Shown: positions 17,128 through 61,657, counted from the first letter of the stretch. The stretch: DNA of 64,000 nucleotides from Aerococcaceae bacterium (GCA_030525795.1 JAUNEB010000003.1:1179-65178), one strand, 5' to 3'. Numbers and translations are program-made. The notes: generated from the letters alone by a model not told the origin.

Positions 17128-17131
17128 AACA

Positions 17132-32909: not shown

Positions 32910-32930
32910 TTTTTGCCATGCTGGCAAAAA
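32910..32930. repeat. 21-bp element palindrome, copy 1 of 15
   Basis: TTTTTGCCATGCTGGCAAAAA. Confidence 0.95.
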
Positions 32931-32965
32931 TTCATTGTCTCAATCAAACAAAGGGGTGTACACAG

Positions 32966-32994
32966 TTGACAAACTACGCAATGCGTGGTATTGT
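32966..32994 (+). promoter_or_regulatory. Promoter with palindromic operator (C(T/C)ACGC-N3-GCGTGG) in the spacer
   Basis: TTGACA-AACTACGCAATGCGTGG-TATTGT; near-identical spacer at 35550-35578. Confidence 0.7.
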
Positions 32995-33137
32995 GTAGTT
33001 GTAAAATAAAACAGTAACTTGCTGTTTAGGAGGTGAGCGAGTGCTCGATAAAAAAATTGAAATTGGTGGTCGAGTATATAGATCGCTAAACGATGTTTCG
33101 AACCGCAATTTTATCTAAGGAAGGAAAGAAATGAAAG

Positions 33138-33638
33138 ATGAGACCGATAGACTATTATCATAATGATAAAAATATCATAGGGCATCAGTTTGGGCGATTG
33201 ACTCCTTTAAAAAGGATTAGTGAAAAAGGTAAAGCGGTCTACCTCTGTCGGTGTCTGTGCGGAACAGAATTAGCAGTTAAAGGTGGGTATTTGGTTTCAA
33301 AAACCACGAGGTCTTGTGGGTGTCTAAAAACAGAAAACTCACGAAAGCTGATGCAAAATATCCAAGATAAAGGTCACAACGAACTGAGAAAACATGCGAT
33401 TGAGGGGACGAACACCATTTCCTTTAACCAAAAAGTATCCAAAAATAGCAAGACTGGGATAAAAGGTGTCAGCAAATATAAGTCTGGGCAATACAGAGCT
33501 TATTTAACTATAAAGCGTAAACAAATTCATCTTGGAATTTTTGAAACAATGGAAGAAGCAGCTGCAGCGCGATTAGAGGCTGAGAAAATTTATTATAAAC
33601 CGTATTTAGAGATAAGGGGAGACAAAAATGAAATTTGA
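33138..33638 (+). CDS. AP2-domain DNA-binding protein (phage-like, Cys-rich N-terminus)
   Basis: GHQFGRLT, YLCRCLCG, TRSCGC, then NSKTGIKGVS...YRAYL...IHLGIFETMEEAAAARLEAE. Confidence 0.85.
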   Translation: MRPIDYYHNDKNIIGHQFGRLTPLKRISEKGKAVYLCRCLCGTELAVKGGYLVSKTTRSCGCLKTENSRKLMQNIQDKGHNELRKHAIEGTNTISFNQKVSKNSKTGIKGVSKYKSGQYRAYLTIKRKQIHLGIFETMEEAAAARLEAEKIYYKPYLEIRGDKNEI

Positions 33639-33936
33639 ACTGTTTAAGCAACTATACGCCGAAGCCTTGGAAGAATCCGATTTAGAATACTACATCGCTG
33701 AACGAGGCTGGCAAGAATGGATGGAAAACTACACGGCTCAAGAGATAGCAGATATATTGAATCGTGTACACACTTTAGCCAATAATCCCTTAAAAGATAC
33801 CCGCCAGAACTCTAGGGCAGAATTTTGTAGAGAGTACAACATTCCTTTGCGTACGGTGGAGGACTGGGATTCTGGAAATCGCACCCCGCCATCCTACATA
33901 AAACTTTTAATCGATTTTGCGCAGTTTAATCGCTAA
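33628..33936 (+). CDS. Helix-turn-helix protein (Xre-like C-terminal HTH)
   Basis: SRAEFCREYNIPLRTVEDWDSGNRTPP. Confidence 0.8.
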   Translation: MKFELFKQLYAEALEESDLEYYIAERGWQEWMENYTAQEIADILNRVHTLANNPLKDTRQNSRAEFCREYNIPLRTVEDWDSGNRTPPSYIKLLIDFAQFNR

Positions 33937-33962
33937 TCTCTGATTAGAATCACATACCTCTA

Positions 33963-34083
33963 TGGCGAACCCTGTTCGCCGTTGAAGCAAGTAATTTCAA
34001 AGTACATACAACACTACAAAATTTCACTTCTACAACCCTCTCCCTAAAATGAATAGCGTTATTTTTTGCCATGCTGGCAAAAA
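33963..34083 (+). repeat. 121-bp module B (GGCGAAC/GTTCGCC hairpin to palindrome copy 2), repeated at 37404-37524
   Basis: Near-identical direct repeat by inspection. Confidence 0.9.
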
Positions 34084-34159
34084 TATGAATTGATATAATT
34101 ATTAACCCCACCTCCTGCGCGGAAGTGGGGATCTTTTTACTCTTATACAGCTGTTTTTT

Positions 34160-34537
34160 CTAAACTCGATCTAAGCAATTGAATCTCATAGACGGGTGTA
34201 TCTTTTTTGTAAAACCTCGCTCACCGTAAACGGTAAAATAAGCAAATTCTTTTTGACTGTTCGCCAAGTAAAGATTGATGAATTGATAGTTTCTCTTCAT
34301 CTTAACAATTTGAGGGGATGTGTTGAATTTAATTTCCCCATCATAGTCTATATATCCAATCCCGACAAGACCAACTTCTCGTGTCATCAACCCTGCTTCA
34401 TCTAGCGGGTCAGCGCAAACCCACTCTAAAGCCTCCAAAAATTCTTCCTGTGTAACTTTTCCGAATTTTTCCCACTGCTTAAACAATTTGCTATTGCCAG
34501 ATAAAACAATTTTCTTTTTAGTTTCAAAGTTATTCAT
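34160..34537 (-). CDS. Hypothetical cargo protein
   Basis: Intact ORF with overlapping start/stop to the upstream gene; hairpin at 34104-34131 downstream. Confidence 0.7.
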   Translation of the reverse strand: MNNFETKKKIVLSGNSKLFKQWEKFGKVTQEEFLEALEWVCADPLDEAGLMTREVGLVGIGYIDYDGEIKFNTSPQIVKMKRNYQFINLYLANSQKEFAYFTVYGERGFTKKIHPSMRFNCLDRV

Positions 34538-35027
34538 TCACTATCCCGCCTTTAGATTTTTTTAAGATACCTACATACTTCCCTGGTAGCTCTACTCTTT
34601 CGTAAGTAGCTACGCCATGATTTTCATCATCTATTTCTGCGTAATCCGTAAAGGTTGGAGGTTCGTTTAGGTCCTGTAAGCGCGGGTTTGATGTATAACG
34701 CTTAAAAATAACATGAGGTGTTTTGTTGTAATAATAATGGTCCGAAAAAATCGCGATGTATTCGTCGTATTTATCGAGGTTACTAAAAAAATTCATGCCG
34801 TAAGATTTGTGACTCAAGATTTGAGATATAATCCCCATAAGCAAGCGAGCGATCTCTTCATCTTTTTTAGGAGCTTGCGGTAGAGGTGGTCCAAAAAAAT
34901 CTTTTGCCTCTTCGCTCATACCCTCATAGTCTTCAAAATATTCTTTTCCGTCAAAGCCGTTAGTTAGCTCTACTTCAAATCCTAATATTTTTAATTGCTC
35001 TTTTAAGTTGTCAATTAATTTTTTCAT
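34530..35027 (-). CDS. Hypothetical acidic cargo protein
   Basis: AGAGGTAATC RBS module shared with three other genes. Confidence 0.75.
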   Translation of the reverse strand: MKKLIDNLKEQLKILGFEVELTNGFDGKEYFEDYEGMSEEAKDFFGPPLPQAPKKDEEIARLLMGIISQILSHKSYGMNFFSNLDKYDEYIAIFSDHYYYNKTPHVIFKRYTSNPRLQDLNEPPTFTDYAEIDDENHGVATYERVELPGKYVGILKKSKGGIVNE

Positions 35028-35128
35028 TTTGATTACCTCTTTCTGTTTTTGTATCTTCTACCTGTCTTTATTACAACATAAGGTTTGCACAAATTTTGCT
35101 TGTCCCATATTTTTATCCTTCTAAAAAT

Positions 35129-35506
35129 CTATTTTTTCCAACGAACCTTAGTTCCAGCTTCTTCTTGCATTTTTGCGGCATTCAACCATTTCTCAAAATT
35201 GAGATTTTCTTCGTCAGAACCTACAAATTCCTCGTGGTTGCCCCATTCCTTAACCACCCAATAATTTTTGTCCAATATTACTTCGTTCCCGTAATAATTT
35301 ATTGATACTTGCCAATCTTTAACAAAAACAACCTGTGTTTCGCTTAAAATCAACGCATAACCATACTTAGTTTTTAATAAGTGGTCATCGCCAACTCTCA
35401 CAACAATTTTTGTTTTATCTTCCGAAACCCGCTTCATTGTTAAATATTGGTTGCTGTCCTCTTTTACGTCTAGTCCCGCAAATCTAAAATCGTTGAATTT
35501 TGTCAT
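35129..35506 (-). CDS. Hypothetical cargo protein
   Basis: Same RBS module; strong promoter at 35550-35578. Confidence 0.8.
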   Translation of the reverse strand: MTKFNDFRFAGLDVKEDSNQYLTMKRVSEDKTKIVVRVGDDHLLKTKYGYALILSETQVVFVKDWQVSINYYGNEVILDKNYWVVKEWGNHEEFVGSDEENLNFEKWLNAAKMQEEAGTKVRWKK

Positions 35507-35549
35507 TTTGATTACCTCTTTCTGTTTTTATTATCAACCTTACAATTAT

Positions 35550-35578
35550 ATTGTACCACGCGTTGCGTGGTTTGTCAA
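35550..35578 (-). promoter_or_regulatory. Consensus promoter with CCACGC-N3-GCGTGG operator
   Basis: TTGACA-AACCACGCAACGCGTGG-TACAAT. Confidence 0.75.
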
Positions 35579-35643
35579 CACTTTTATTTATTTTTTTATT
35601 TTTTTTACACAACAAATATCTAGATAAAACTTAAAACTAAATC

Positions 35644-35802
35644 TTATTCCAAAGGATCATTCATGGATTGTAATTCATTCATTACAGATTCATAAAATTC
35701 CAACGCTGTCAAAGCCCCTACTGGAACTGCTTCTTCTTCTAAATAATAATCAACAATAATATTTTTATTAAACAATTCATTGCATTCTCGTCCTACAAGC
35801 AC
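35644..35802 (-). CDS. Possible small acidic protein (52 aa, MLVGRECNELFNKNIIVDYYLEEEAV...)
   Basis: Open frame from GTG with AGAGGA upstream; not in the ORF track. Confidence 0.35.
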   Translation of the reverse strand: MLVGRECNELFNKNIIVDYYLEEEAVPVGALTALEFYESVMNELQSMNDPLE

Positions 35803-35894
35803 CAAACCATCCTCTTATATCGTAGGTTTAACACTACGTCAAGTTAAACCTACGTTTTAGTGAGGTAAATCTCCTAATAATGAGCTTACGCTTA

Positions 35895-36199
35895 TTTTTG
35901 CCATGCTGGCAAAAATCTCCTCCAATCGCTCGCCAAGTCTTCGATGCTTTGAAACCGTAACTGATATTGACTCGTCAAATCACGGTTTCTAAACCCTCGT
36001 GCGACTTGTCAGCGATTGGCGGCGGTCACGTTACCTAAAGGTAACGTCCCTTTCGACGTCTAACACAATTCGCCCCGTTTCGCAAGGGTAAACATGCAGT
36101 GCTGCCTAAGCTCCTATGTCGCTAAGGCGCACTAGCCCTTGTCTAAACGTGGCGAACCGCGTTCGCCGTTGAAGTAAGCCAGCCGCGATGCGTCTGGAA
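35895..36199 (+). repeat. 305-bp structured repeat A, copy 1 (starts with palindrome copy 3)
   Basis: Near-identical to 37149-37428, 39349-39653 and 40392-40696; nested inverted repeats. Confidence 0.95.
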
Positions 36200-36289
36200 C
36201 TTTATCAAAAGGAGTGATAACAATGAACACCTCATAGACTGAAATCGAAAAGCATAGCCAACTAACATAAACATAAAGGAGTAACTAAC

Positions 36290-36652
36290 ATGGGATTAGA
36301 CCAATACATTTTTACTAGAAACAATAAAGAAGATGACCCTACTGTGTGGCAATCGTTTAGAAAGGTCAATTGCTTACAAGGATATTTTGAAAATAACTTC
36401 AATATAGAAAATTGCGTACCGTTTTCGATTGAAAAACACATGGTAGAAGAAGTGATTGACCTCACCAATCAAGTGCTTGAAAATCCAACACTTGGAAAAG
36501 ATTTATTTCCGATACAGCTTGGCTTTTTCTACGGGAACTATGAATACAATGATTGGTATTTAGAAGATGTCACAAAAACCAATACAGCCTTTAAGCGATT
36601 ATTGGAAGTTTTTGATACATTCGCAACAGTTGAATATTATTGTTGGTGGTAA
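36290..36652 (+). CDS. Conserved phage/ICE hypothetical protein (MGLD...RKVN...GFFYG...YYCWW type)
   Basis: AAAGGAG RBS; motif pattern recurrent in mobile-element proteins. Confidence 0.8.
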   Translation: MGLDQYIFTRNNKEDDPTVWQSFRKVNCLQGYFENNFNIENCVPFSIEKHMVEEVIDLTNQVLENPTLGKDLFPIQLGFFYGNYEYNDWYLEDVTKTNTAFKRLLEVFDTFATVEYYCWW

Positions 36653-36706
36653 ATAAATACACTCCCCCTTAATTAAGGGGGAGCATTAAAGAAAGGAACT
36701 CAACAC

Positions 36707-37105
36707 ATGACAAAAAAATATTATGACGAATTTAGCCGATTGACCGTCGAAAAAATGGCTCAAAGCATCTCTGAAATGACCTATGCACACAATCAAACAC
36801 AAGTGCCAACCTCTCATTACAAAAAATTACTACAAGCAAATGTCATTGAACTATTAGCACAAGATAACGTAGTACAGTCTTTATTATTAAACGCGATTTT
36901 GAGCCAACTTCATGCCCTACAAAAAGAAAGTCCAGAACTATTTTTCAAAGCACTTGTCTGTTTTGATATGGGTGTTAAGTCCGATAAAATCAATCAACAG
37001 GTATTAGATAACTTGGAACGCGCATGGCAAGTACACAAGTCAACAAAACAACTATTGACTGATAGTATCCGAGCAACCTACGAAACTCGAATTATTCCTA
37101 AGTGA
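36707..37105 (+). CDS. Hypothetical ICE protein
   Basis: AAAGGA RBS; followed by a terminator at 37113-37150. Confidence 0.8.
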   Translation: MTKKYYDEFSRLTVEKMAQSISEMTYAHNQTQVPTSHYKKLLQANVIELLAQDNVVQSLLLNAILSQLHALQKESPELFFKALVCFDMGVKSDKINQQVLDNLERAWQVHKSTKQLLTDSIRATYETRIIPK

Positions 37106-37148
37106 TATGACAACACAACCGCTTGAATGCCCACAGCGGTTGTGTTAT

Positions 37149-37428
37149 TTTTTGCCATGCTGGCAAAAATCTCCCCCAATCGCTTGCCAAGTCTTCGATG
37201 CTTTGAAACCGTAACTGATATTGACTCGTCAAATCACGGTTTCTAAACCCTCGTGCGACTTGTCAGCGATTGGCGGCGGTCACGTTACCTAAAGGTAACG
37301 TCCCTTTCGACGTCTAACACAATTCGCCCCGTTTCGCAAGGGTAAACATGCAGTGCTGCCTAAGCTCCTATGTCGCTAAGGCGCACTAGCCCTTGTCTAA
37401 ACGTGGCGAACCGTGTTCGCCGTTGAAG
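37149..37428 (+). repeat. Repeat A copy 2 (280 bp, no downstream gene; runs into module B)
   Basis: Direct sequence identity with the other copies. Confidence 0.95.
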
Positions 37429-37524
37429 CAAGTAATTTCAAAGTACATATAACACTACAAAATATTACTTCTACAACCCTCTCCCTAAAATGAATAGCAT
37501 TATTTTTTGCCATGCTGGCAAAAA
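37404..37524 (+). repeat. Module B copy 2, ending in palindrome copy 5
   Basis: Matches 33963-34083. Confidence 0.9.
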
Positions 37525-37586
37525 TATATGAATTTAGACATTCGTAACCCCTACCTCCTGCTGTGCATGGAAGTAGGGGTTATGAG

Positions 37587-38024
37587 TTATAGTTGGGTAT
37601 ATCTGCTTTCTAAAGCCTCCGTTATAATCATGCGTATCGGTTTGCCTGTCTCGGACTTTTCCTTCTCCACTTTATCCGCAAGCACCGTCGGAATCTGCAA
37701 ATGAATATTTGTCATCCCGTCTTCATCGCTGCTGCCGAATTCCTTCTCGCACTCAACGACTTTCAGCTTTTCTTCCGCCCATTTTCTTGCCTCATCAAAA
37801 GTCAAGGGCATAATCTTCTCGCCTGGACCGCGCATATCGTTGTAAGTTCCTGCATACTTAGATAACCCGCCACCCTTACCGTGGATAAAGTATTCACCCG
37901 TGCGTTTTTTGTATAGCGTTTCGGTGTAAAACGCAAAAGCATTCACGGGATAATCGGCTTTGTAAGTGCCAATTTCTTTTGCGGTAGTCGTGTCATAAAC
38001 TTTGTTTTGAATAATTTTTTTCAT
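37587..38024 (-). CDS. Mobile-element protein with probable C-terminal ribbon-helix-helix
   Basis: MKKIIQNKVYDTTTAKEIG...ETLYKKRTGEYF; C-terminal TNIHLQIPTVLADKVEKE...IITEALE. Confidence 0.75.
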   Translation of the reverse strand: MKKIIQNKVYDTTTAKEIGTYKADYPVNAFAFYTETLYKKRTGEYFIHGKGGGLSKYAGTYNDMRGPGEKIMPLTFDEARKWAEEKLKVVECEKEFGSSDEDGMTNIHLQIPTVLADKVEKEKSETGKPIRMIITEALESRYTQL

Positions 38025-38049
38025 AGTTAATTTTCTCCTTTTACATTTT

Positions 38050-38496
38050 TCAACTGTATCTTTTCTCTTCAATCCAATACTTAGCGCTCGTGTTTTGAAA
38101 CTCTTTTTCCCACTTATCTTGTACCCAGTCGATAAGAGCTTTTTCTTTCAATTTTCTGTACGCTACATATACTTCTTTGTTAGCACGACGAAACTCGCGT
38201 GCCGTATCCTTATCTTCCGGTGTTCTCCCCAAATGAAAATCGGAATTATTTCTCTCTAATTCTTCGTTCCAAACAACTGCATAGATTTCTTCATATTTTT
38301 CTTTCTCATCATCTCTAACGATAAACCATCTAGCGTTGCTTAAAGTGTTGATCTCTTCTAACGTTAACTTTTCTCCACTTAGTTTTTTTTCAGATAAAGC
38401 TACGAACACTTCTAGCTTCTTAACATACGTGTTTCTAATATCTTGCGCCCATTTGACTTGTTTTTCGCTTCCTTGCAACTCTACTAAATTCATCAT
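38050..38496 (-). CDS. Hypothetical cargo protein (LQGSEKQVKWAQDIR...SAKYWIE type)
   Basis: Shared promoter/RBS module. Confidence 0.8.
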   Translation of the reverse strand: MMNLVELQGSEKQVKWAQDIRNTYVKKLEVFVALSEKKLSGEKLTLEEINTLSNARWFIVRDDEKEKYEEIYAVVWNEELERNNSDFHLGRTPEDKDTAREFRRANKEVYVAYRKLKEKALIDWVQDKWEKEFQNTSAKYWIEEKRYS

Positions 38497-38538
38497 GTTG
38501 ATTACCTCTTTGTTTTTTATTATCTCTTAACTGTCTTA

Positions 38539-38567
38539 ATTTTATCATAGAGTTTGTACAAAGTCAA
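38539..38567 (-). promoter_or_regulatory. Promoter with TTTGTACAAA operator
   Basis: TTGACT-17 bp-(TGa)TAAAAT. Confidence 0.7.
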
Positions 38568-38664
38568 GTTTTTTGCAAAAAAAGTTGCTCTCTTTATAAA
38601 ATAATTTTTTCTCTCCCCCTTACGTCCTTATGAAACAAAAAAAGCAACCTCGCGGCTGCTTAAA

Positions 38665-39201
38665 TCATTCGTTAGGCAAGTAGTATGCGACCATGCGGTT
38701 GAAAAAGTCCTCTCTTTTTTGTTTAAGTTCGTCAATAGCTTCTGTAATGCTGACATATCCTTTTTTAAGCGATTCATCTTTACAAGATTCAAAATATTGA
38801 TTCAAGATTTCTTCTGCGCTATGGCGAGCATAAAATTCCAAATTGCTCTCTGTCTCTGATAAAGCGTTGTATTTTTTTTGCATGCTCTTGTCAAAGTAGT
38901 CATATACAACGTCTAAAATTTTATCAAAGCAATATTCGTAGTGGTCCAAATTTTTAACGGTCAACACTTCGTTAAAATACTTGATGTTTCCATCGCATCT
39001 GCGATCAATTACGAGACTGTAGCTATTGTAACGCCATAGGGTTAAGTTAACCCCGTAAAAATTTAGAAAGTTATCTAAAACAAAGTCAATCTTAAAATGT
39101 TTCTTGATATATTCGTAGGTTAGTAATGTATCAACGTCCGCAATTGCTTCAATCTCACCTAAAATGCTTAAAATGATTTGGATAGTTTGTTGATGTATCA
39201 T
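38665..39201 (-). CDS. Hypothetical cargo protein
   Basis: Shared promoter/RBS module; own terminator at 38636-38661. Confidence 0.75.
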   Translation of the reverse strand: MIHQQTIQIILSILGEIEAIADVDTLLTYEYIKKHFKIDFVLDNFLNFYGVNLTLWRYNSYSLVIDRRCDGNIKYFNEVLTVKNLDHYEYCFDKILDVVYDYFDKSMQKKYNALSETESNLEFYARHSAEEILNQYFESCKDESLKKGYVSITEAIDELKQKREDFFNRMVAYYLPNE

Positions 39202-39243
39202 GCTGATTACCTCTTTCTTTTTTATTATCTCTTAACTGTCTTT

Positions 39244-39272
39244 ATTATAGCATAGAGTTTGTACAAAATCAA
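39244..39272 (-). promoter_or_regulatory. Promoter with TTTGTACAAA operator
   Basis: TTGATT-17 bp-(TGc)TATAAT. Confidence 0.7.
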
Positions 39273-39348
39273 GTGTTTTCTTATTTTTTTTTTGCCTTTT
39301 CAGTGAAGAACATAATTAAACCAATCTCCACCTCATAGATGTGTTTCT

Positions 39349-39653
39349 TTTTTGCCATGCTGGCAAAAATCTCCCCCAATCGCTGGCCAAGTCTTCGATG
39401 CTTTGAAACCGTAAACGATATTGACTCGTCAAATCACGGTTTCTAAACCCTCGCGCGACTTGTCAGCGATTGGAGGCGGTCACGTTACCTAAAGGTAACG
39501 CCCCTTTCGACGTCTAACACAATTCGCCCCGTTTCGCAAGGGTAAACATGCAGTGCTGCCTAAGCTCCTATGTCGCTAAGGCGCACTAGCCCTTGTCTAA
39601 ACGTGACGAACCGCGTTCGCCGTTGAAGTAAGCCAGCCGCGATGCGACTGGAA
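39349..39653 (+). repeat. Repeat A copy 3
   Basis: Direct identity with a few substitutions. Confidence 0.95.
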
Positions 39654-39678
39654 AATAAATAGAAAAGAGGAACTCACT

Positions 39679-40110
39679 ATGAAAAATATCAAACAAATTA
39701 CTAACGCACTTTATTTTGTTGAACCAACTAAACTCACACGAGAATATGCAATTAAAGTATTAATCGAAACTTTTGAAGACTACGACGGGCGTATTTGCGA
39801 CCTACACATTGACATATTCGACTATACCCGTAAATTCATCTTCTACGCTGAAGCAGAAGCAGAACTTTACGCGTATAACGTTTTTGACGCGATTGCCGAC
39901 ATCCAAGAATATGAAGAAGAACACTACGGAAAAATCTGCACCGATTTATCCAACTCTTGCGACATCGCAAACATGATTTTCTACATCATCTTCTACAAAC
40001 TCATCGGGGAACTTAACAGCATTCAAAATAACTGGGACAAAAAAATAACCGACGAAATACGACAAGAGGTTTTGACCGAATTATACGATTTACAAGAATT
40101 AGTAGCATAA
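39679..40110 (+). CDS. Acidic phage-like hypothetical protein
   Basis: AAAGAGG RBS right after repeat A; D/E-rich. Confidence 0.8.
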   Translation: MKNIKQITNALYFVEPTKLTREYAIKVLIETFEDYDGRICDLHIDIFDYTRKFIFYAEAEAELYAYNVFDAIADIQEYEEEHYGKICTDLSNSCDIANMIFYIIFYKLIGELNSIQNNWDKKITDEIRQEVLTELYDLQELVA

Positions 40111-40129
40111 AGAAAGTGAGTGAATCCCC

Positions 40130-40357
40130 TTGAAACAACAAAACATCTACGTTATTTATACATGCGACGCTTGGAAGTCCTACGACTCCATGCGCCTACA
40201 CGCAATCGCTCGCAACGAAAAAACATTAATGCGTATTATTAAGCAGATGCTCCGTGACGGCTGTGTTAAATTTCAAAATTCGTTAGATAATCTAAACATG
40301 GACACCATTCATACATTGGACTATTGCGCTGTTCATCAAGAATTGTTATATGGATAA
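40130..40357 (+). CDS. Small hypothetical protein (YTCDAWKS motif)
   Basis: TTG start; followed by a terminator at 40367-40396. Confidence 0.65.
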   Translation: MKQQNIYVIYTCDAWKSYDSMRLHAIARNEKTLMRIIKQMLRDGCVKFQNSLDNLNMDTIHTLDYCAVHQELLYG

Positions 40358-40391
40358 TATACCTTGACACCCTTTATCACGGGTGTTTTAT

Positions 40392-40696
40392 TTTTTGCCA
40401 TGCTGGCAAAAATCTGCCCCAATCGCTCGCCAAGTCTTCGATGCTTTGAAACCGTAACTGATATTGACTCGTCAAATCACGGTTTCTAAACCCTCGTGCG
40501 ACTTGTCAGCGATTGGCGGCGGTCACGTTACCTAAAGGTAACGTCCCTTTCGACGTCTAACACAATTCGCCCCGTTTCGCAAGGGTAAACATGCAGTGCT
40601 GCCTAAGCTCCTATGTCGCTAAGGCGCACTAGCCCTTGTCTAAACGTGGCGAACCGCGTTCGCCGTTGAAGTAAGCCAGCCGCGATGCGTCTGGAA
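40392..40696 (+). repeat. Repeat A copy 4
   Basis: Direct identity with copy 1. Confidence 0.95.
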
Positions 40697-40724
40697 AATA
40701 AATCCTATGAAAGAGGTTATCAAA

Positions 40725-41003
40725 ATGAATTACTACACATTGAATGCTGCGATAGAATACGCCCAAAGCTCAACCCCCGAAATCGTGAAATCCTTCAAAA
40801 TCACAAACATCATCCCCTTGGACTTTAACCACATGGAAGGTCAAAACTATCAAATCAACTTGAAAGTCATCACAACCCCTAAATACAAAAATAAAATCGT
40901 TAAAATTCTTACAAATTCCACCTATTTAGACGACTATTCAGATGAGACTCAGTTTTTACCAACTCAGTTAGAAGAACACTTAAATTATTTGCTGTGTAAT
41001 TAA
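40725..41003 (+). CDS. Hypothetical cargo protein
   Basis: AAAGAGGT RBS before ATG 40725. Confidence 0.7.
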   Translation: MNYYTLNAAIEYAQSSTPEIVKSFKITNIIPLDFNHMEGQNYQINLKVITTPKYKNKIVKILTNSTYLDDYSDETQFLPTQLEEHLNYLLCN

Positions 41004-41021
41004 ATTAAAAAGAAAGAAGGA

Positions 41022-41258
41022 ATGAATATGACAATTCAACAACTCACTCAAAGCCCACTACTAACCGAAATTAGCCAACAACTCACCGTAGGTGACCGAT
41101 TGTATCTAGTTGCTGAAGGGAATGCGTTACGCTTAGAAATCAACGCGAAACCCGCTTCCAATGCACTCGAAATTTTATTCCTAACCATTACCCAAACACC
41201 TGAAATCATTCAGCACTTACTCAAACAAGCGCTATACGTCGCGGAACTTACCTTATAA
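41022..41258 (+). CDS. Hypothetical cargo protein
   Basis: AGAAGGA RBS; ends at the terminator. Confidence 0.65.
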   Translation: MNMTIQQLTQSPLLTEISQQLTVGDRLYLVAEGNALRLEINAKPASNALEILFLTITQTPEIIQHLLKQALYVAELTL

Positions 41259-41263
41259 ACACA

Positions 41264-41306
41264 AAACAGGCAATCGACTCCATCGAATCGATTGCCTGTG
41301 TTATTT
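41264..41306. terminator. Bidirectional terminator separating cargo and transfer regions
   Basis: ACAGGCAATCGA...TCGATTGCCTGT inverted repeat. Confidence 0.8.
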
Positions 41307-41307
41307 G

Positions 41308-43272: not shown

Positions 43273-43294
43273 ACGTCACGCTCCTTTCCATACA

Positions 43295-52029: not shown

Positions 52030-52059
52030 TATGTTCTCCTCTCTGAAAAAATCTGTTTA

Positions 52060-52080
52060 TTTTTGCCAGCATGGCAAAAA
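52060..52080. repeat. Palindrome copy 8 (reverse core orientation)
   Basis: TTTTTGCCAGCATGGCAAAAA. Confidence 0.95.
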
Positions 52081-52095
52081 TTGCCATTATCTAGC

Positions 52096-53916: not shown

Positions 53917-56089
53917 CCGCTTCCCCCTTTACTTGTAACGTCGCAAATTGTTGCGGATACCGTGCGATAAACGCCTGAAGCGTTGGTTCACTGTCAATCG
54001 TTTCAAATTCTTCAACCAATTCGTTGAAGTAGTAATGCACCCGTTGGGATACCGTTTGATAGAGTGGCAAGTCCTCTAACGATACGGTATCGAGTTGTTG
54101 ATCACTAAATTGTGTTTCATCAAGTAACGGCATATCGGTTGCATAACGCGCAAATGCGTGTAATCCTTCTGCCTGCATGGTTGTTTCCACCTCCTGTATG
54201 GATTGTTCAATGCTATTTGCTCCATGTGCTTGTTGCGCTTGTTTGACGCGCCGTTGAATCACACGTTGAAAATAGCTTAATTGTTCCGTACTCCAATTTT
54301 GGTTGTGATGTTTTCGGATATTGAGTTTATCGTGATGAACGCGTTGAAACACGTCATCCAAATAAGTATATGCCGTCAAAATACGACTGTTTCCATGATT
54401 GAAAATAGGATACGGAATTTGATCTTCCCGTTGTTCGTTTTTACGTTTCGTTCGATAAATCACCCACTCCCCTTCGAGGAGATTCGCTAATTCATTAGGA
54501 AACATGAGCGGGCGTGTTTCGACTTGTTCACTAATCGATTTGTTGAACCCCCACCAATGCCCCGAACGGCTCTTTTGAGTCACTTCACGATTTCCCAACT
54601 TTTTAGACATCCATTCTTGCGTATCCTGGTTGGAAGACGTAATAAAGATGACATTCATCATCTGGCTTTCGAGGAAGGTTGCTAAATCAGCGCCGTAAGT
54701 AATTTTGAGTTGGACTAAATCTTGAACGTAAAAATCAAATAACATCCCACGTCCCCCACCAACTGAAACCATTGACCCCATACTATTAAAAGCAGGTAAA
54801 TTCCCAAACTCATTCAAAATAAATCGAATCCGTTTAGGCAGTCGATCTCCATGTTGGCTCGCATGTTTGGATAAGTAGTAATAACACTGCTCAATCCATG
54901 TTGTCGCAATGTTGTAGTTTGTTTTCGTATAGTCTGGCAGCAAAATGAATACCGCGTAAGGTTGTTCTGACTGTACTAAATTCTCAAAATCGAAGGTAGT
55001 ATGATTCATCATGCGGACAACTTTAGGCGCGACAAACTTTTGAAGTCGTGATAAGGTTGTTCCCAACACAGACGAACGCATTTGTCCCGTTGTAACCCCA
55101 ATCGTCGCATATTCTTGTCTGGCTGGATTATCTAGCGGCAACGTATTGAAGTAATCATCCAATAACGTCCGTGTTTCAGACTTCGTTTGATACGTTCCTG
55201 ATAATTCAATCAGCATCGAGATAACAGAACCTAATGTAATGAGTTCTGTCTTTTGTTCATGTTCTTTGTCAGAGGATAAAAACTCATGGCATAACGCCAA
55301 AATACACGCATTAACCATCGCCATCGATAAATTGTTCCAAATAGGGTCTTTCACGTTAATCACGTCATATAAGGGCTGTGTAAACGTCTTACACAATTCA
55401 ACCGCTTCATCAATATCACCTGCCGCATAGGCTTTCGATATTAAATCTAACGGACTGTATCCGAAAGAACAATCTAAATCAACTAAGTTCAGCACTTCAA
55501 CAATATACCCTCGTAATTCTAGTTCTTGTTTCGTTTTCTCCAACGTGTCATATTTAACCGTCGAATAAATGATATGTGGTTGTTCTTCACTACGTGAAAT
55601 CAGCTCTAATTCAGGTAAGGCTTTCGTCTCATCCTTTCCGCTTCGTGTACGCCCAATCGTCAAGGAATGCACGTCGTCCGTATCAACAAATGCGGTATCA
55701 TCTTGTTTAGAAATAAACGCCCCTGATAAACCAGGATAGCACTCAACTTCACCGTCTGCATTGTATAACGGATAATACGGAACTGCTTTATACGTCTGTC
55801 TCACTTCTGCATCCGTAGAAAAGCGACTCGTTGCCTTATTGCCTGCTTGTAGCGAACCAAATTGCGCTTCAAATTGATAATAAGCACGTACTACAATCAT
55901 CCCAACAAACCCAAACAATAATAGATAACCTGGTACATACTGATTGGAAGGCGTCATCAATAGCGCCCACAAACCCGTACTCCCTTGTCGCAAAGTTAAA
56001 TAGCGCCAAGAGTTGAACAATAGATTCGTAATCAAGTACGTTAAAACGGTTGTCCCCAATAGTAGCGCTTTCCAATGTTTCACCGACAT
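53909..56089 (-). CDS. VirD4-like type IV coupling protein
   Basis: Two N-terminal TM helices, GRTRSGK, FILNEFGNLP, VQDLVQL, RPLMFPNEL. Confidence 0.9.
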   Translation of the reverse strand: MSVKHWKALLLGTTVLTYLITNLLFNSWRYLTLRQGSTGLWALLMTPSNQYVPGYLLLFGFVGMIVVRAYYQFEAQFGSLQAGNKATSRFSTDAEVRQTYKAVPYYPLYNADGEVECYPGLSGAFISKQDDTAFVDTDDVHSLTIGRTRSGKDETKALPELELISRSEEQPHIIYSTVKYDTLEKTKQELELRGYIVEVLNLVDLDCSFGYSPLDLISKAYAAGDIDEAVELCKTFTQPLYDVINVKDPIWNNLSMAMVNACILALCHEFLSSDKEHEQKTELITLGSVISMLIELSGTYQTKSETRTLLDDYFNTLPLDNPARQEYATIGVTTGQMRSSVLGTTLSRLQKFVAPKVVRMMNHTTFDFENLVQSEQPYAVFILLPDYTKTNYNIATTWIEQCYYYLSKHASQHGDRLPKRIRFILNEFGNLPAFNSMGSMVSVGGGRGMLFDFYVQDLVQLKITYGADLATFLESQMMNVIFITSSNQDTQEWMSKKLGNREVTQKSRSGHWWGFNKSISEQVETRPLMFPNELANLLEGEWVIYRTKRKNEQREDQIPYPIFNHGNSRILTAYTYLDDVFQRVHHDKLNIRKHHNQNWSTEQLSYFQRVIQRRVKQAQQAHGANSIEQSIQEVETTMQAEGLHAFARYATDMPLLDETQFSDQQLDTVSLEDLPLYQTVSQRVHYYFNELVEEFETIDSEPTLQAFIARYPQQFATLQVKGEADG

Positions 56090-56128
56090 CCTCCTTTCTC
56101 GCTTACCAGCATGGCAAACCCCTCTCTT

Positions 56129-56437
56129 TTACAACGTCAATTCGGCTTCGATTGTTTGTTGCGGTTGCTTTCTTTGTTCCTGTTTTAAGGATTGTGTTTC
56201 CTGCTGCATCAAATAATGATCTACACCTGTTGTAATATCCATACACGTCTGCAAGGTACTCTCCAACAACTCTAACCGTTCTTCAGGTGACATCTTGCTC
56301 GAATATGCTTGTAAGTAATTCAAACTATAATCGTTCGGCGATTGTCCATAATACTGCAATACAATCGTCGCAACCCCTTGCGCTTGAATTTCTTGAAGTT
56401 GCGCTTGTTTTTCTTCAATTGTTTTTTTCTGGTACAT
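56129..56437 (-). pseudogene. Internally deleted ArdC/LtrC-like protein remnant
   Basis: N-terminal KKTIEEKQAQL fused directly to a C-terminal-type EIQAQGVATIVLQYYG...DYSLNYL motif. Confidence 0.45.
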
Positions 56438-56678
56438 ACTCCGTCACCTCGTCGCAAAGAATCGCTTGTGTTGTATCGGTTAATGAAAAACACAATGTCG
56501 TAGTGCTTAATGCCAAAAATAACAAACGTTCCGTATCACAAATCTCTTGAAGTAAGGTGCGTTCTTGAGGGTTTTGAGAAAAGAAAGTTTGCATCGATGC
56601 ACGATACTGTTTGTCTGAAGCAACCAAATGCAGATCATCGTTAATCACTTCATGAACATAAACTGGAATAAGTGTCAT
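56415..56678 (-). CDS. Hypothetical protein
   Basis: AAGGGGA RBS before MTLIPV; palindrome copy just upstream. Confidence 0.6.
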   Translation of the reverse strand: MTLIPVYVHEVINDDLHLVASDKQYRASMQTFFSQNPQERTLLQEICDTERLLFLALSTTTLCFSLTDTTQAILCDEVTEYVPEKNN

Positions 56679-56757
56679 CTTAATCATCCCCTTTTTCATT
56701 TGCCATGCTGGCAAAAAATACGCCCAAGTAATCACTTACTTGGGCAATTGTTATTAA

Positions 56758-58398
56758 TTAGTGTGACGTTGATGCTTTTTCATAAACATGTGCATCGCCT
56801 TCCGTTCCCTTATAAACATATCCATTTTCAAGTAATTGTAAATGTTCTTCAGGAAGCGGCACTGTTGGCTCAACTTCTGTTGTTGGGCTTGCTTCAGCTA
56901 CTTCAACCGTGTCTTGTGGTTGAGGCTCACTTCCAACCTCCGCTGCGTCCACAGGTACTTCCGCTTCTAATGCAGCAACGGAAGCTACTTCATCCACAGT
57001 AGCTTCCGTTACAGAGGCTGTACTGTCGACTACTTCTGAGGTCACAACTTCCTCAGCTACTACTGGCTCGATAGCGGGTTGAACTGCCGCAAACGTTACA
57101 TCAAAATGTGTCCGTCCTTGTTCATCCACTTTCTCAGCGACTTCAAACGTTACTGCTTTACCTTCAGCATAACGTGTTGCGAATGTTGTTGCAGATGCTT
57201 CGTCCAAGAAGAAAGGCACTTCTTCTAATGTTTGATCCTGGAATGAAACCTCTGTATCGGCTTCATCAGGATTCGTTCCTAAGCTCGCTTCAACACCGTT
57301 CGTATAACCGTCTGCGTCATTATCTGCCAAAACATCGTATGTAGACGTCGTTGCCGCTTCAACCTGTTCAACAGGTTCAGTTGCAACAGCAACCGTCTCC
57401 TCAACGCTTGTTGTTTCGACGGGAGCTTCAACAACACCAACGGGTTCAACCTCTGGCGACGTTTCTGCAGCTACAACAACCGTTTCCGTTGTTTCATCTT
57501 GTGTCGATGCAACGGCTGCAATAGGCTCAGTTGTTGAAGCAGATTCTGCTGAAGTGGTTGTTGCGACTTCAGTTGCCGCTTCTTTAGATAGTTCGATTGC
57601 TGCAGGTGACGCTTGCGTCGATGCAACGACTGCAGCGGTTGTATCGATCACAACATCGCTTGGAGTTTCGGTTGAAGCAACTTCCGTTGATTCATGAGGT
57701 GTACTAGCTACCACTAATTCAACCGTTTCTTGATCGACTAACGCCACTACCTCGTTCAATGAGGCTACTTCTTGAACTGCTACCGTCTCCGCTCGCGCAA
57801 CCACTGCTTCTAATGTTTCGACAGGGGTTGTAGTAGGAGCTTCAACGCGTCCTACAATCTGTTCTAACTTATCTTGTTGAACAACAGCTTGTTCTTGGGA
57901 TAGCTGTGCTTCCGATTTTTGATACACTAATGCAAATTCATTCGTCTTATCCGTTGTAAACGTAATTGCTTGTTGTGACGCATTAAATGGAATTGTGCGA
58001 TACTCTGCATCAGGAGATAAAAATAAAATCTTTTCTAAGTTACCACGTAACTGTTCAGATTCCAATTTAATCTCTGTCGGCACATGCGTAACAGGATTGC
58101 CTGCTTCATCTACCAATCGGATTAACAATAAATCAAACGACGATTGATCCAATGTTTTAGGCAAGCGTCCCAATACCTCTTGAATGGTACGCGAATCCTT
58201 CACAACTTCAATATTCGCTTGATAGACGGCTGACGAGTGTTCAGATGACACTTTCACCGTGACCCCAAATTCGGTATTTTCAAACAACGAATATTGTTTC
58301 ATCGGTTGAACAATAGAGGCTGCTTCTGCAAGTACAACTTGTTGAAGCGGCACATTCCCTAACGCAATAACAGCGAGCGTTATGAGTTGTTTTTTCAT
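56758..58398 (-). CDS. Secreted acidic Ala/Thr/Glu/Val-rich protein with a DNDADG Ca-binding-like motif
   Basis: Signal peptide MKKQLITLAVIALG; low-complexity stalk; DNDADGYTNGVEASLGTNP. Confidence 0.75.
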   Translation of the reverse strand: MKKQLITLAVIALGNVPLQQVVLAEAASIVQPMKQYSLFENTEFGVTVKVSSEHSSAVYQANIEVVKDSRTIQEVLGRLPKTLDQSSFDLLLIRLVDEAGNPVTHVPTEIKLESEQLRGNLEKILFLSPDAEYRTIPFNASQQAITFTTDKTNEFALVYQKSEAQLSQEQAVVQQDKLEQIVGRVEAPTTTPVETLEAVVARAETVAVQEVASLNEVVALVDQETVELVVASTPHESTEVASTETPSDVVIDTTAAVVASTQASPAAIELSKEAATEVATTTSAESASTTEPIAAVASTQDETTETVVVAAETSPEVEPVGVVEAPVETTSVEETVAVATEPVEQVEAATTSTYDVLADNDADGYTNGVEASLGTNPDEADTEVSFQDQTLEEVPFFLDEASATTFATRYAEGKAVTFEVAEKVDEQGRTHFDVTFAAVQPAIEPVVAEEVVTSEVVDSTASVTEATVDEVASVAALEAEVPVDAAEVGSEPQPQDTVEVAEASPTTEVEPTVPLPEEHLQLLENGYVYKGTEGDAHVYEKASTSH

Positions 58399-58444
58399 AC
58401 ATTTTCCTTCTTTCTCGTTTGCCAGCATGGCAAACGTTATTTTA

Positions 58445-59650
58445 TTACTGCAAGTTATCAATGATGACTTGACGTTGTTCGTATAATTGAACCTTTTGCG
58501 CTTCAAGCGCTGTTTTTTCTTCTGGCTTTAATTCAGGAGCTGCTAATTTTTGATTCACTTGTGCAATCGCACTATCTGCCACACCTAAGTCTGCCAAAAA
58601 CTGTTGGAGCTTTGGACTTTGGATTTGTGCTTGTATCGCGTTCGCATCCGCCCACAAGGCTTGTTTGTATAGTTGTACCGCTTGCGCTTCTTTGGCTTGC
58701 CAAATAAGCTGACTAATCGATTCCACATTGAGTGTCGCATTCAAAACTTCCGCTTCTGCAATATACCCCTGCTTAACATACGCAACCGCTAATTGTACCA
58801 AGCGCTCATCCGTATCTGCTTCTGCCTTTAACTCGATGACTTTATTAAAATCTTTTTTCAAGTAAGCTAAATCAAAGTGTCCCTTTTGGTAGTCTGGTTT
58901 CAACTTTAGAAACTCCTCCAGGTAAGGAATCGCATTAGTTTCCGTATAGAAAATGGTTCGTTCAATATACGGAAATTCTTGCGGGTAAAACTCTAATGCT
59001 TGCGCAAACTTTTTCTCAGCCAATAATGTCTCTAAATCAGGTTGTTCTGTTTTAGAAGAATGTTGTTCGGTTGAATCAGATTCCGTTTGCGATACAATTA
59101 CCGTTGCTTCCGACGTCGGATGAGCGGGTGGTTGAAGTAATGCTACAACTGTTACAATGCCTAAGAAAGCTGCAACCCCACTTCCTATCCATAACTGGCG
59201 TTTCGTTAGTGGTAATTGGGCAGGTAATTGAGGTAATTTCCATTTCTTCAACCACTGCTTCAACTTATTTTCTGGTTGAACGTACTGTAACTTAATTGGA
59301 TTCTGACGGTAGCTTTCATAATCTGCCGCATACAAGTCTCCCATCTCACTTAACAATTGTTGATATTCTTTCGGAATGACACCATTTGTTTCAGGATAGA
59401 GTTTCTTCAAGCGGTTCTCTAAATAGACTAAGTATTGCGTCCCTTCACCATAACCAAGCGTTAAATCGTCTTTCAACTGCTTTAGATTTTCTTTGAAGAT
59501 AATGACAGTTAAAACAGCCTTGTGTTGCATTTTGGAACATTTTTGTTCCAATTGATCGATTAAATCAACGGCTTCAACGACGCTATATTTTTTTCGTGTG
59601 CTGATTAAGCCTTTAAGTTGTGAGTCTCCCGTATGTAGTTTAATAAACAT
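58445..59650 (-). CDS. Conjugation-region membrane protein with helical C-terminus
   Basis: GGGAGGAGG RBS; central TM helix. Confidence 0.7.
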   Translation of the reverse strand: MFIKLHTGDSQLKGLISTRKKYSVVEAVDLIDQLEQKCSKMQHKAVLTVIIFKENLKQLKDDLTLGYGEGTQYLVYLENRLKKLYPETNGVIPKEYQQLLSEMGDLYAADYESYRQNPIKLQYVQPENKLKQWLKKWKLPQLPAQLPLTKRQLWIGSGVAAFLGIVTVVALLQPPAHPTSEATVIVSQTESDSTEQHSSKTEQPDLETLLAEKKFAQALEFYPQEFPYIERTIFYTETNAIPYLEEFLKLKPDYQKGHFDLAYLKKDFNKVIELKAEADTDERLVQLAVAYVKQGYIAEAEVLNATLNVESISQLIWQAKEAQAVQLYKQALWADANAIQAQIQSPKLQQFLADLGVADSAIAQVNQKLAAPELKPEEKTALEAQKVQLYEQRQVIIDNLQ

Positions 59651-59665
59651 ATACAGCCTCCTCCC

Positions 59666-60031
59666 TTACTGATAACCGCCTCCAGTGATTGCAGATTGGA
59701 CAAAGTGAACAATTGTTGCAGCACTCATGCCAACGGCGTAATAAATACCAATTTTCACATAGTTATCCTTCGTTTTTGACCCCGCGTCTGATCCCATTAC
59801 TAACCCGTAAAGAGAGTTAATCAGCACCATTAAAATCGCAACGCCTGTTAAAGCCATGCGTAAATCACTCGTAAATGAGGATACTAAACTATTGATAAGG
59901 CTACCGATACCTGGAGAAGCAGCTTCTTCTGCCGCTGCATCTTGCGCAAATACAACGGCGTGATGCCACATACTAGACAGCGTTACTGCCAATGATGACG
60001 TGATTAGTTGTTGTTTTAGACTTTTTTTCAT
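59666..60031 (-). CDS. VirB2/TrbC-like pilin-type membrane protein
   Basis: Signal peptide (VFA) plus two hydrophobic helices; near the start of the T4SS genes. Confidence 0.55.
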   Translation of the reverse strand: MKKSLKQQLITSSLAVTLSSMWHHAVVFAQDAAAEEAASPGIGSLINSLVSSFTSDLRMALTGVAILMVLINSLYGLVMGSDAGSKTKDNYVKIGIYYAVGMSAATIVHFVQSAITGGGYQ

Positions 60032-60047
60032 TCGTCCTCTATCCTTT

Positions 60048-60215
60048 CTATTCTTTTTCTGTTGTAAATAATTTGGTATTATCCATCACAAGACGTAAAT
60101 TTTGTTCATAGCGATGTTGTTCGGGATCAATCCCACGTTGCTTGAGGATATGGTTTGCCATTTCCTCCATCGCTTTCATGTCTGCTTTATTGACTTCTAC
60201 TTGGATTTTTGCCAT
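60048..60215 (-). CDS. Small protein (55 aa, MAKIQVEVNKADMKAMEEMANHILKQRGID...), absent from the ORF track
   Basis: AAAGGGGGA RBS, ATG, fills the gap before the pilin-like gene. Confidence 0.7.
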   Translation of the reverse strand: MAKIQVEVNKADMKAMEEMANHILKQRGIDPEQHRYEQNLRLVMDNTKLFTTEKE

Positions 60216-60235
60216 AAAATCCCCCTTTCTTAAAT

Positions 60236-60267
60236 AAAAACAGAAGGCTCTACATAAGAACCTTCTG
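60236..60267 (-). terminator. Intrinsic terminator inside the transfer region
   Basis: AAAAACAGAAGG...CCTTCTG. Confidence 0.65.
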
Positions 60268-60296
60268 AGGTAATTTTTGCCAGCATGGCAAAAACT

Positions 60297-60593
60297 CTAT
60301 TCCGATTGTTTCAATGTGGCTGCTTCCTTTTCAAATTGGTACTGGGTAATCGTTTGTAAAGTCTTCAAATAACCTAAACTGCACCTTAGCCAAGAGCCTC
60401 CCAACACCACCCATAAGATGGTTAAGAAGATAGCTCGCGGATCTACATACGCACATACTGCAGCCATTAGCCAAGAACCCCACATACAATGTAAAGAACT
60501 GCGACAACTTTTATAGAGAAAGATCGCATACTCCTCTAACTTTTCCAATGAAAAGGAGTGTAAATAAGTGTAATCCTTCGATCTGAGTTTCAT
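60297..60593 (-). CDS. Small two-TM membrane protein, paralog of 60967-61263
   Basis: MKLRSKDYTYLHSFSLE...QFEKEAATLKQSE; AAGGAGG RBS. Confidence 0.75.
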   Translation of the reverse strand: MKLRSKDYTYLHSFSLEKLEEYAIFLYKSCRSSLHCMWGSWLMAAVCAYVDPRAIFLTILWVVLGGSWLRCSLGYLKTLQTITQYQFEKEAATLKQSE

Positions 60594-60672
60594 TGTTTCC
60601 CTCCTTCTTGATAAAATAGAGTTGTTCCCTAATAAACAATAGGAACAAATAATGAAAGAAAGGAGTCTATTC

Positions 60673-60870
60673 ATGTTTGATACAATCTTGTGGATCATTT
60701 TGATAATACCTATATTATTTTTGGCGAATATCCTTTTCCAAAAAGTAAAGTTCCAATATCGCTACAATCGCCGTGTGAATCCAGTTGTGCTTTCCATACT
60801 GATTGCTTCAATTCTCGCGATAATGTGGTCCATCTATCAACTGTTAGTACCCCATAACCCTTATCAATAA
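60673..60870 (+). CDS. Small two-TM membrane protein on the opposite strand
   Basis: AAAGGAG RBS before MFDTILW. Confidence 0.65.
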   Translation: MFDTILWIILIIPILFLANILFQKVKFQYRYNRRVNPVVLSILIASILAIMWSIYQLLVPHNPYQ

Positions 60871-60966
60871 TGGGGTATCCCAATCCTCCTATGCCAGTAG
60901 GAGGATTATTTGATTCCCAAAAAGATTTATCAAACGACTTCATTTTTTGCCAGCATGGCAAAAACT

Positions 60967-61263
60967 CTATTCGGATTGTTTCAATGTGGCTGCTTCCTTT
61001 TCGAATTGATAGTTGATAATCGCTCGTAAAGTCTTCAAATCATCTAAACTACAACTTAACAAACCCCCTCCCAATACAACCAATAGGGTGATAAAAAAAA
61101 TATCTCGTGGATATACGTACGCACATATTGCCGCCATTAGCCAAAATACCCACATATAATGTAAAAAGCAGCGACAATCTTTATATAATCTTGTCGCATA
61201 GTCCTTTAACTCTTCTAATGAAAAGGATTCTAGATAGGTGTAATCCTTCAATCTGCGTTTCAT
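60967..61263 (-). CDS. Small two-TM membrane protein, paralog of 60297-60593
   Basis: MKRRLKDYTYLESFSLE...QFEKEAATLKQSE. Confidence 0.75.
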   Translation of the reverse strand: MKRRLKDYTYLESFSLEELKDYATRLYKDCRCFLHYMWVFWLMAAICAYVYPRDIFFITLLVVLGGGLLSCSLDDLKTLRAIINYQFEKEAATLKQSE

Positions 61264-61316
61264 CCCGTTCACTCCTTTCTGAATTTTTGCCAGCATGGCA
61301 AAAATTAGAGAATTAT

Positions 61317-61610
61317 TTATACTTCTTTAGCACGTTCATTCTGTTTATCGTAAAGTTTTCTTAAACCGTCTAACTCTATGAGGTGTTTCAAATAGTCATA
61401 GATTGTAGAAAATTGGAGTACGCTTATCGAAATAGATAGAAAGGCAAGTAATCCTCCTATCATTAAGCGTTCAAGATTGCTCCCTTTGAATAGCCAACAA
61501 TCTACCAAAACAGTTCCTACTGCCAAAAGAGAAAGTCCAGTGAGTACATAGAATAGTCGCACATTGTATCTGAGTTGTTGATGAAATTCATCAAAAGTTG
61601 ATCGTTTCAT
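61317..61610 (-). CDS. Small two-TM membrane protein
   Basis: Same palindrome-RBS-ATGAAACG leader as the 61263 gene. Confidence 0.7.
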   Translation of the reverse strand: MKRSTFDEFHQQLRYNVRLFYVLTGLSLLAVGTVLVDCWLFKGSNLERLMIGGLLAFLSISISVLQFSTIYDYLKHLIELDGLRKLYDKQNERAKEV

Positions 61611-61657
61611 CCCGTTCACTCCTTTCTTAATTTTTGCCAGCATGGCAAAAACTATCT

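Follow-up and report, generated by a model that had tools for sequence, protein, structure and literature searches.

A palindrome dispersed over an integrative and conjugative element of Aerococcaceae as the probable recognition site of the element's own ParB

The window, by which we mean the whole 64,000-nucleotide stretch of DNA from an Aerococcaceae bacterium that was analysed (contig C32:1179-65178), contains part of an integrative and conjugative element (ICE) of 41,856 bp, along which a 21-bp palindrome recurs from end to end. Judged from sequence, this palindrome is very probably the parS/OB-type double-stranded DNA recognition site of the ICE's own ParB protein. A sequence-only reading of the window had offered three options, (a) a cassette recombination or hairpin site, (b) a KorB/parS-like binding site and (c) an RNA hairpin. 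The second was supported: parAB genes were found on the ICE, the motif travels with the clade of this ParB, and its bases co-vary with the ParB recognition helix.

Distribution of the palindrome

A scan allowing mismatches detected 22 copies in the ICE, 15 within the window and seven past its end, the latter starting at 64909, 66250, 67466, 67955, 70363, 72099 and 72819 in extended coordinates (the window numbering continued past the window end). All 15 copies claimed earlier within the window were present, 12 of them as exact 21-mers at the starts listed; the copies placed at 56699 and 56103 begin, as 21-mers, at 56697 and 56100. The 56697 copy has two changes in its left arm and the 56100 copy is degenerate, while the reciprocal arm changes described for the 58416 copy were seen as described. 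The 17-bp core was matched 14 times in the window and not once in 100 dinucleotide shuffles, with ~0.006 chance matches expected per genome. The first 31 kb held no copies, as had been noticed, and a scan of the whole genome (1.3 Mb, 78% complete), which had been proposed to see if the host chromosome was equally rich, found the palindrome confined to the ICE and to a mini-element on contig C5 (three copies).

With gene starts placed by ribosome-binding sites the copies were intergenic, as claimed, save that the 60944 copy overlaps a doubtful 83-aa open reading frame lacking such a site; intergenic DNA makes up only 13% of the ICE. Six in-window copies did lie near ribosome-binding sites, ending 16–30 nt upstream of a start codon; over the whole ICE a start codon follows nine copies at 13–30 nt, and in relatives the spacing is 16–35 nt. 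Sites are on average ~1.9 kb apart, and the longest site-free gap (11.7 kb) holds the relaxase gene and the candidate origin of transfer (oriT). The asymmetric core had been described as polar around oriT. This held inside the window but not over the whole ICE, where the copies right of oriT divide 9 to 6, and the seven copies left of oriT trace to only three independent duplications (Fisher p=0.21); the polarity was rejected as a product of the window edge and duplicated blocks. The palindrome was rightly said not to be an intrinsic terminator, the stem being followed by an A-run and no U-tract. Also rejected was the arm TTGCCA as a -35 element: over 64 sites there was no enrichment of a -10 element 16–18 nt downstream, and a fair -10 was present only at the site before parA.

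The spacer is TGC/GCA in 20 of the 22 copies, AAT in genome G005 and AAA in G116, being uniform within most elements and different between elements. Two other loci (L102 and L104, from Aerococcaceae NML160702 and NML191292) have the same arms with a 2-nt spacer, four times each, plus one copy each with a 3-nt spacer. Spacer uniformity and start-codon spacing suggest that sites are copied or converted within an element. An exact-motif scan gave four isolated single matches in a genome contig collection and none in a viral contig collection, and no description of the palindrome sequence was found in the literature searched.

ParB as the proposed binder

The search for a ParB-like gene outside the window, which the sequence-only reading had advised, was successful: a parA-parB pair was found 6.4–8 kb past the window end. 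ParA is of Walker type (AAA_31, E 5e-49) and its gene lies directly upstream of parB. ParB (284 aa) matched PF02195 with 65.5 bits; its nearest named homologues are from Aerococcaceae, and the nearest solved sequences, Noc and Spo0J, are about 27% identical. A structural model (mean pLDDT, the predicted local distance difference test score, 84.5) comprised a ParB N domain, a helix-turn-helix (141–167) and two C-terminal helices (246–276; monomer). The helices of the helix-turn-helix (141–152 and 156–167, pLDDT 75–96) align with those of Noc and Spo0J, and the best Foldseek matches of the model were Noc, Spo0J and KorB (KorB E 5e-9). The CTP-box residues G74, R77, N109 and R113, in GxxR and (E)NxxxR motifs, were invariant in 63 homologues, and the GxxR box has His in place of the catalytic Glu. 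Three sites bracket parAB and the gene upstream of the pair: one precedes parA by 28 nt, one follows parB by 39 nt and the third lies upstream of that gene. By its sequence features the module is a type Ia ParABS, with sites dispersed and not clustered.

A search of 140 family genomes identified close relatives of the ICE ParB in seven other genomes. An unbiased count of palindromes in these genomes yielded, for six, an element-specific form of YGCC-N5-GGCR with differing flanks, and in the seventh (G025) the palindrome was seen by a directed scan. A related palindrome was also present in five further contigs with the ParB clade, and in genomes and contigs alike it often directly precedes parA or follows parB. 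G023 is a complete genome, and its five matches all lie at most 42 kb from parB; over the 140 genomes clusters of at least five matches were found only in ParB carriers. Site positions recur across elements whose proteins are 30–60% identical: before parA, after parB, after a 401-aa gene, before virD4, near 122- and 154-aa genes and upstream of the transposase. Genome G125 has a distant VirB4 (21%), yet parAB and sites are kept. ParA and ParB were the ICE proteins most consistently present in palindrome carriers. Four ICEs with related transfer genes, whose genomes have a lone ParB-family match elsewhere, lacked a dispersed palindrome, and G110, where the ParB match resembles chromosomal ParB, had no such site. 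The motif was also absent from metagenome loci collected by relaxase, which at 27–43% are too distant.

The element of G023 (contig C1:1166000-1216500) looks rearranged, with relaxase and Toprim genes kept, large internal duplications and persisting sites; no VirB4 or VirD4 match was seen within the 80 kb read. In distant MobL elements (L015:3400-5400 and L016:5400-7900) another short palindrome, TGGCTTGAAAGCCA, occurs three times upstream of the relaxase.

More distant ParBs (~30–35% identical, from other Bacillota and viral-collection contigs) have a single related 25-bp palindrome within parB, immediately ahead of the helix-turn-helix codons, in a stretch that is deleted in the Aerococcaceae clade. 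Co-variation of helix and site was examined in 64 non-redundant ParB proteins, with site-encoded columns excluded and 214 columns compared. Of these columns, the recognition-helix residue 157 correlated best with site positions -3, -4 and -5; residues 156 and 160 came next. Arg or Lys at 157 went with G at -4 in 27/27 proteins, and none of the 37 without Arg or Lys there had G at -4 (37/37). Asp157 went with G at -3 (9/9), and all 19 Asn157 proteins had CCC, which was also seen in two others. Tree-independent pairs agreed in 6/6, 5/5 and ~8/8 cases (p 0.03, 0.06 and 0.008; tree built without site and helix columns). The ICE ParB (Arg157, half-site TTGCCA) and its seven relatives, with sites in trans, fit this residue-to-base rule, and a distant ParB (L255) has the same S-S-R helix start and the same TTGCCA half-site. 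Residue 156 aligns with the position of Noc Q158 and Caulobacter ParB R173. This position is a known determinant of specificity (PMC7383237).

The family of ParBs with an in-gene palindrome (L192-L271, L075-L101) is widespread, and in it helix and site specificity switches even between sister proteins that are close on the tree.

The element carrying the sites

The ICE extends from window position 31362 to extended 73217 and is bounded by terminal inverted repeats and a 9-bp target duplication, CTTTGCCTA. Its ISLre2 transposase matched NF033529 with 228.6 bits (cut-off 200), and 16 bp separate the ICE edge from a putative downstream -35 (TTGCTT, weak, read by eye) of the host infC/L20-leader promoter. 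Genes for a MobL relaxase, VirD4, VirB4 and a CwlT-like hydrolase are present, with a RepA_N initiator past the window end. On its transposase, inverted repeats, duplication, insertion spacing, conjugation genes and RepA_N, the ICE is classed as TnGBS-type (ISLre2). Its features are as follows.

31353..31361, plus strand: target duplication, left copy (right copy at extended 73218-73226)
31362..31387, plus strand: ICE terminal inverted repeat, transposase side
31362..64000: ICE within the window, continuing to extended 73217
31557..32843, minus strand: ISLre2-family (TnGBS-type, UPF0236) DDE transposase, NF033529
32910..32930: copy 1, between divergent promoter-like sites of the transposase (-35 at 32893) and an AP2-domain gene (-35 at 32966)
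34063..34083: copy 2, with convergent genes on either side, within a 159-bp block duplicated with copy 5
35895..35915: copy 3, at the left edge of ~300-bp repeat A
35895..36199, minus strand: repeat A, ~300 bp, folding as single-stranded DNA (z -11.4 minus, -9.5 plus)
37149..37432, minus strand: copy 4 (37149-37169) and repeat B
37504..37524: copy 5
39349..39653, minus strand: copy 6 (39349-39369) and repeat C
40392..40696, minus strand: copy 7 (40392-40412) and repeat D
41308..43272, minus strand: Toprim/DUF3991 primase-like gene
43323..44603, minus strand: MobL/MobP2 relaxase
45740..45870: candidate oriT, nested short inverted repeats upstream of the relaxase and accessory genes
46789..56083, minus strand: conjugation genes (CwlT-like hydrolase, VirB4, VirD4 coupling protein)
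52060..52080: copy 8, 30 nt before the start of a 154-aa gene; similar place in G005 and G032
56100..56120: copy 9, degenerate, 16 nt before virD4; full site at the same junction in G005 and G032
56697..56717: copy 10, two left-arm changes
58416..58436: copy 11, reciprocal arm changes, at the junction after the 401-aa gene; site also in G032 and G098
60274..60294: copy 12, at the left edge of a 320-bp gene duplication (82% identical)
60944..60964: copy 13, partner in the copy 12 duplication
61284..61304: copy 14, start codon 20 nt on
61631..61651: copy 15, missing together with the gene 61317-61656 from one contig of a related strain
extended 68477-69670, minus strand: repA (RepA_N)
extended 70423-71277 (L001:9104-9967), minus strand: parB, the proposed binder
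extended 71279-72070, minus strand: parA

The four ~300-bp blocks (repeats A to D) are 96–99% identical, and each begins at a site. As single-stranded DNA they form strong folds, stronger on the minus strand (z about -11), and they resemble single-strand origins, single-stranded DNA promoters or EGeRS1 blocks. A TAGCGA at their terminal loop is presumably CS-6-like. G023 and G025 also have a 60-bp core of the block, with its orientation to the relaxase preserved, and G032 has it once; in relatives the ~300-bp repeat does not begin at a site. Like EGeRS1 of pLS20 and Frpo-type single-strand promoters (PMC8708921, PMC11541004), these are several near-identical structured blocks upstream of small genes of unknown function on a MobL-type element; unlike EGeRS1 they are 300 and not 420–750 bp long and each is fused to a candidate ParB site, the likeness resting on layout and folding.

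The mini-element on contig C5 (C5:15209-17680, L002:7210-9681, genome G000) is a 2.5-kb non-autonomous element inserted between recU and tig, which are adjacent in G003. Its boundaries are a 31-bp copy of the ICE right end and a different inverted repeat; it lies 15 bp upstream of a putative tig -35, and contains a Fic-domain gene, a 99.9% copy of an ICE 399-aa gene and three palindromes.

A strong promoter-like site (31459-31487, minus strand) within the left end of the ICE faces out towards host infC. Tandem LPXTG-type surface proteins are encoded at 61658-63898 and at L001:339-3509, the first with SpaA and T-Q ester-bond domains and the second similar; both are probably mating or adhesion proteins. 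Inside repA (L001:7158-8402) a ~30-bp direct repeat and a small palindrome probably form the replication origin. In the host region 13714-22137 a low-GC (35%) yhfSTWXZ-like operon with phosphotriesterase and amidase-family genes was possibly acquired.

Proposed mechanism and its alternatives

The steps proposed here are drawn from the ParB and KorB literature (PMC11790492, PMC12409273). A ParB dimer would place one helix-turn-helix on each half-site (TTGCCA), bind CTP, close as a clamp and slide off, so that 22 loading sites would coat the 42-kb ICE with clamps. ParA would then partition the excised, RepA-replicated circle coated by ParB, and loaded clamps may damp transcription as KorB does. 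Such KorB-like control is proposed because the sites bracket parAB, part the transposase and AP2 promoters, abut the four hairpin repeats and fill transfer-operon junctions. The intergenic placement would mark where a fixed 15–21-bp word is tolerated.

Several points weigh against ParB as the binder. In 56 of the 64 rows the site is part of parB itself, at ~50 nt from the helix codons, so that site and helix, as neighbours in one gene, may recombine as a block; the in-gene site also encodes amino acids, and trans-acting sites make up only 8/64 rows. Several of the control loci come from contigs that are only partial. In two relatives, spacers of 2 nt and 3 nt occur side by side, which is awkward for a rigid dimer, and protein binding by itself does not explain the uniform spacer of this ICE or the regular distance to start codons. 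A KorA-like partner was not identified.

A more far-reaching reading would give the ParB family a fast-switching code, with one helix residue per base. Its Aerococcaceae branch would have traded the single in-gene site, lost by the short deletion in parB, for many copies seeded and made uniform patch by patch at junctions between genes, and clamps would gate the transfer genes and the early genes (with single-stranded DNA promoters) and pair sites as hot spots of module shuffling. We regard this reading as doubtful.

Option (a) of the sequence-only reading, a recombination or cassette-exchange site at which genes move as site-bounded units by a recombinase or a transferred-strand hairpin, stood only in so far as some duplications do end at a site. 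Three independent ones do so (the four ~300-bp repeats, 60274/60944 and 61284/61631), one related-strain contig lacks one gene together with one site, and two genes of the C5 mini-element are each bracketed by sites. Site-specific recombination (of tyrosine, serine, attC or pdif type) was not upheld, with breakpoints beside or away from sites: the strain indel (depth 3, in a single contig) has its breakpoints 12 and 5 nt outside sites and not inside them, a 1411-bp piece common to the ICE and C5 ends 120 and 51 bp from sites, and duplications in G023 and G098 hold the site 160–400 bp inside or hold none. Contig C69:21400-29480 of G098 (L164) has, between its Toprim gene and an ISLre2 transposase gene, five ~330-bp blocks that are homologous, two with a site and three without; flanks that match with and without a site indicate patch-like gain or loss of single sites. 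The sequencing runs listed as holders were of DNA and shared at most 16% of words; a further site-to-site joint, backed by 23 letters, was left out of account. The ICE proteins scanned included no tyrosine or serine recombinase, and mobility is by the DDE transposase with its own inverted repeats. Tyrosine recombinases have a 6–8-bp overlap and serine recombinases a fixed 2-bp core; a 3-nt or mixed 2/3-nt spacer fits neither. Core orientation is mixed. Since template switching perfects palindromes, reciprocal arm changes need not mean selection for a hairpin. Where duplications end at sites, the most likely cause is that identical short repeats recombined with each other, and we consider an exchange site improbable.

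The palindrome might instead be the operator of another ICE regulator, namely an Xre-type 130-aa protein, a 183-aa protein encoded upstream of parA, a small Zn-ribbon protein or a relaxosome protein. Dimeric repressors typically have two-fold symmetric sites near promoters, and such genes are present on the ICE. The candidates, however, were found in 0/5, 2/5 and 2/5 motif carriers against ParB in all, and the residue-to-base co-variation points to ParB, leaving this alternative little probability.

An RNA hairpin for processing, stability or translational control of a polycistronic transfer mRNA, option (c), would account for the start codons that follow nine copies and for those at a like distance in relatives, and the palindrome can form an 8-bp stem (-8.2 kcal/mol). 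Against this, sense-strand mismatches showed no wobble or strand bias (C.A 13, G.T 12), the arm sequence is fixed beyond what pairing alone requires, and copies lie upstream and downstream of genes and between divergent or convergent ones. The sole match of an Rfam scan was the host L20 leader, with none at the palindrome. Co-variation with the ParB helix would also be left unexplained, and option (c) was set aside as very unlikely.

A host repeat (REP-like) or chance can be practically dismissed, with 0 copies in the rest of the genome and in shuffles, and with the strict pattern matched in only 1 of 60 related genomes, where the match adjoins a ParB homologue.

Relation to known systems

The plasmid RK2 has about 12 KorB sites in 60 kb, whereas the ICE has 22 sites in 42 kb. 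ParB and its proposed sites resemble KorB-OB of IncP-1 RK2 (PMC11790492; 8qa8, 8qa9): both comprise a ParB-family CTP clamp encoded beside ParA on a conjugative element, with short palindromes spread over the element, close to and far from promoters, and both proteins have a residue other than Glu at the GxxR catalytic position (His in the ICE ParB, Ala in KorB). Unlike KorB, the ICE ParB (17% identity) is encoded on a Gram-positive integrated element, with another site sequence, a 3-nt (sometimes 2-nt) spacer and no identified KorA-like clamp-locking partner. The ICE ParB may work like KorB, yet by site, identity and KorA it falls outside IncP-1 KorB in the strict sense.

B. subtilis spo0J carries its site within the gene, as do the distant relatives of the ICE ParB. 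As in chromosomal ParB-parS and Noc-NBS (PMC7383237), specificity appears to lie at the start of the same recognition helix. In contrast to these systems the site is unrelated, the main co-varying residue is 157 and not 156, sites are found only on the mobile element, and specificity shifts repeatedly among close relatives and is not conserved. A canonical centromere has a single parS cluster near par or ori, while the 22 sites are spread across the whole ICE. Repetitive extragenic palindromic (REP) sequences and bacterial interspersed mosaic elements (BIMEs) are host repeats, whereas this palindrome has 0 copies outside mobile DNA.

BisD-bisS of ICEclc (PMC12409273) is likewise an ICE-encoded ParB-like clamp with palindromic sites, BisD spreading over tens of kb and being linked to transfer-gene control. 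BisD, however, has two loading sites and a fused activator domain and activates with BisC, whereas the ICE has 22 sites and a 284-aa ParB without such a large domain.

With the TnGBS/ISLre2 (p-MULT 3) ICEs (PMC3942029) the element shares a transposase, inverted repeats, a 9-bp duplication, a 16-bp insertion spacing, an initiator and conjugation genes; the hallmarks of that group are an 8–9-bp duplication and insertion 15–17 bp upstream of a sigma-A -35 (PMC3942029). It differs in lying outside Streptococcus and in its MobL relaxase and ParA/ParB module. The TnGBS paper makes no mention of ParB or palindromes (PMC3942029), and no description of either on TnGBS-type ICEs was found in the literature searched.

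The overall kind of system is known; new here are the residue-to-base code, the Aerococcaceae clade and the patch-like gain or loss of single sites. If the palindrome is the ParB site, the KorB-type plan of one CTP clamp and many dispersed loading sites would extend to Gram-positive transposase-based ICEs and would give them a centromere-like site. The dozens of natural ParB-site pairs would form a large natural series for ParB/Noc specificity. The rule would predict which elements compete for each other's sites and which avoid them, and orthogonal ParB-parS pairs would become available for DNA labelling.

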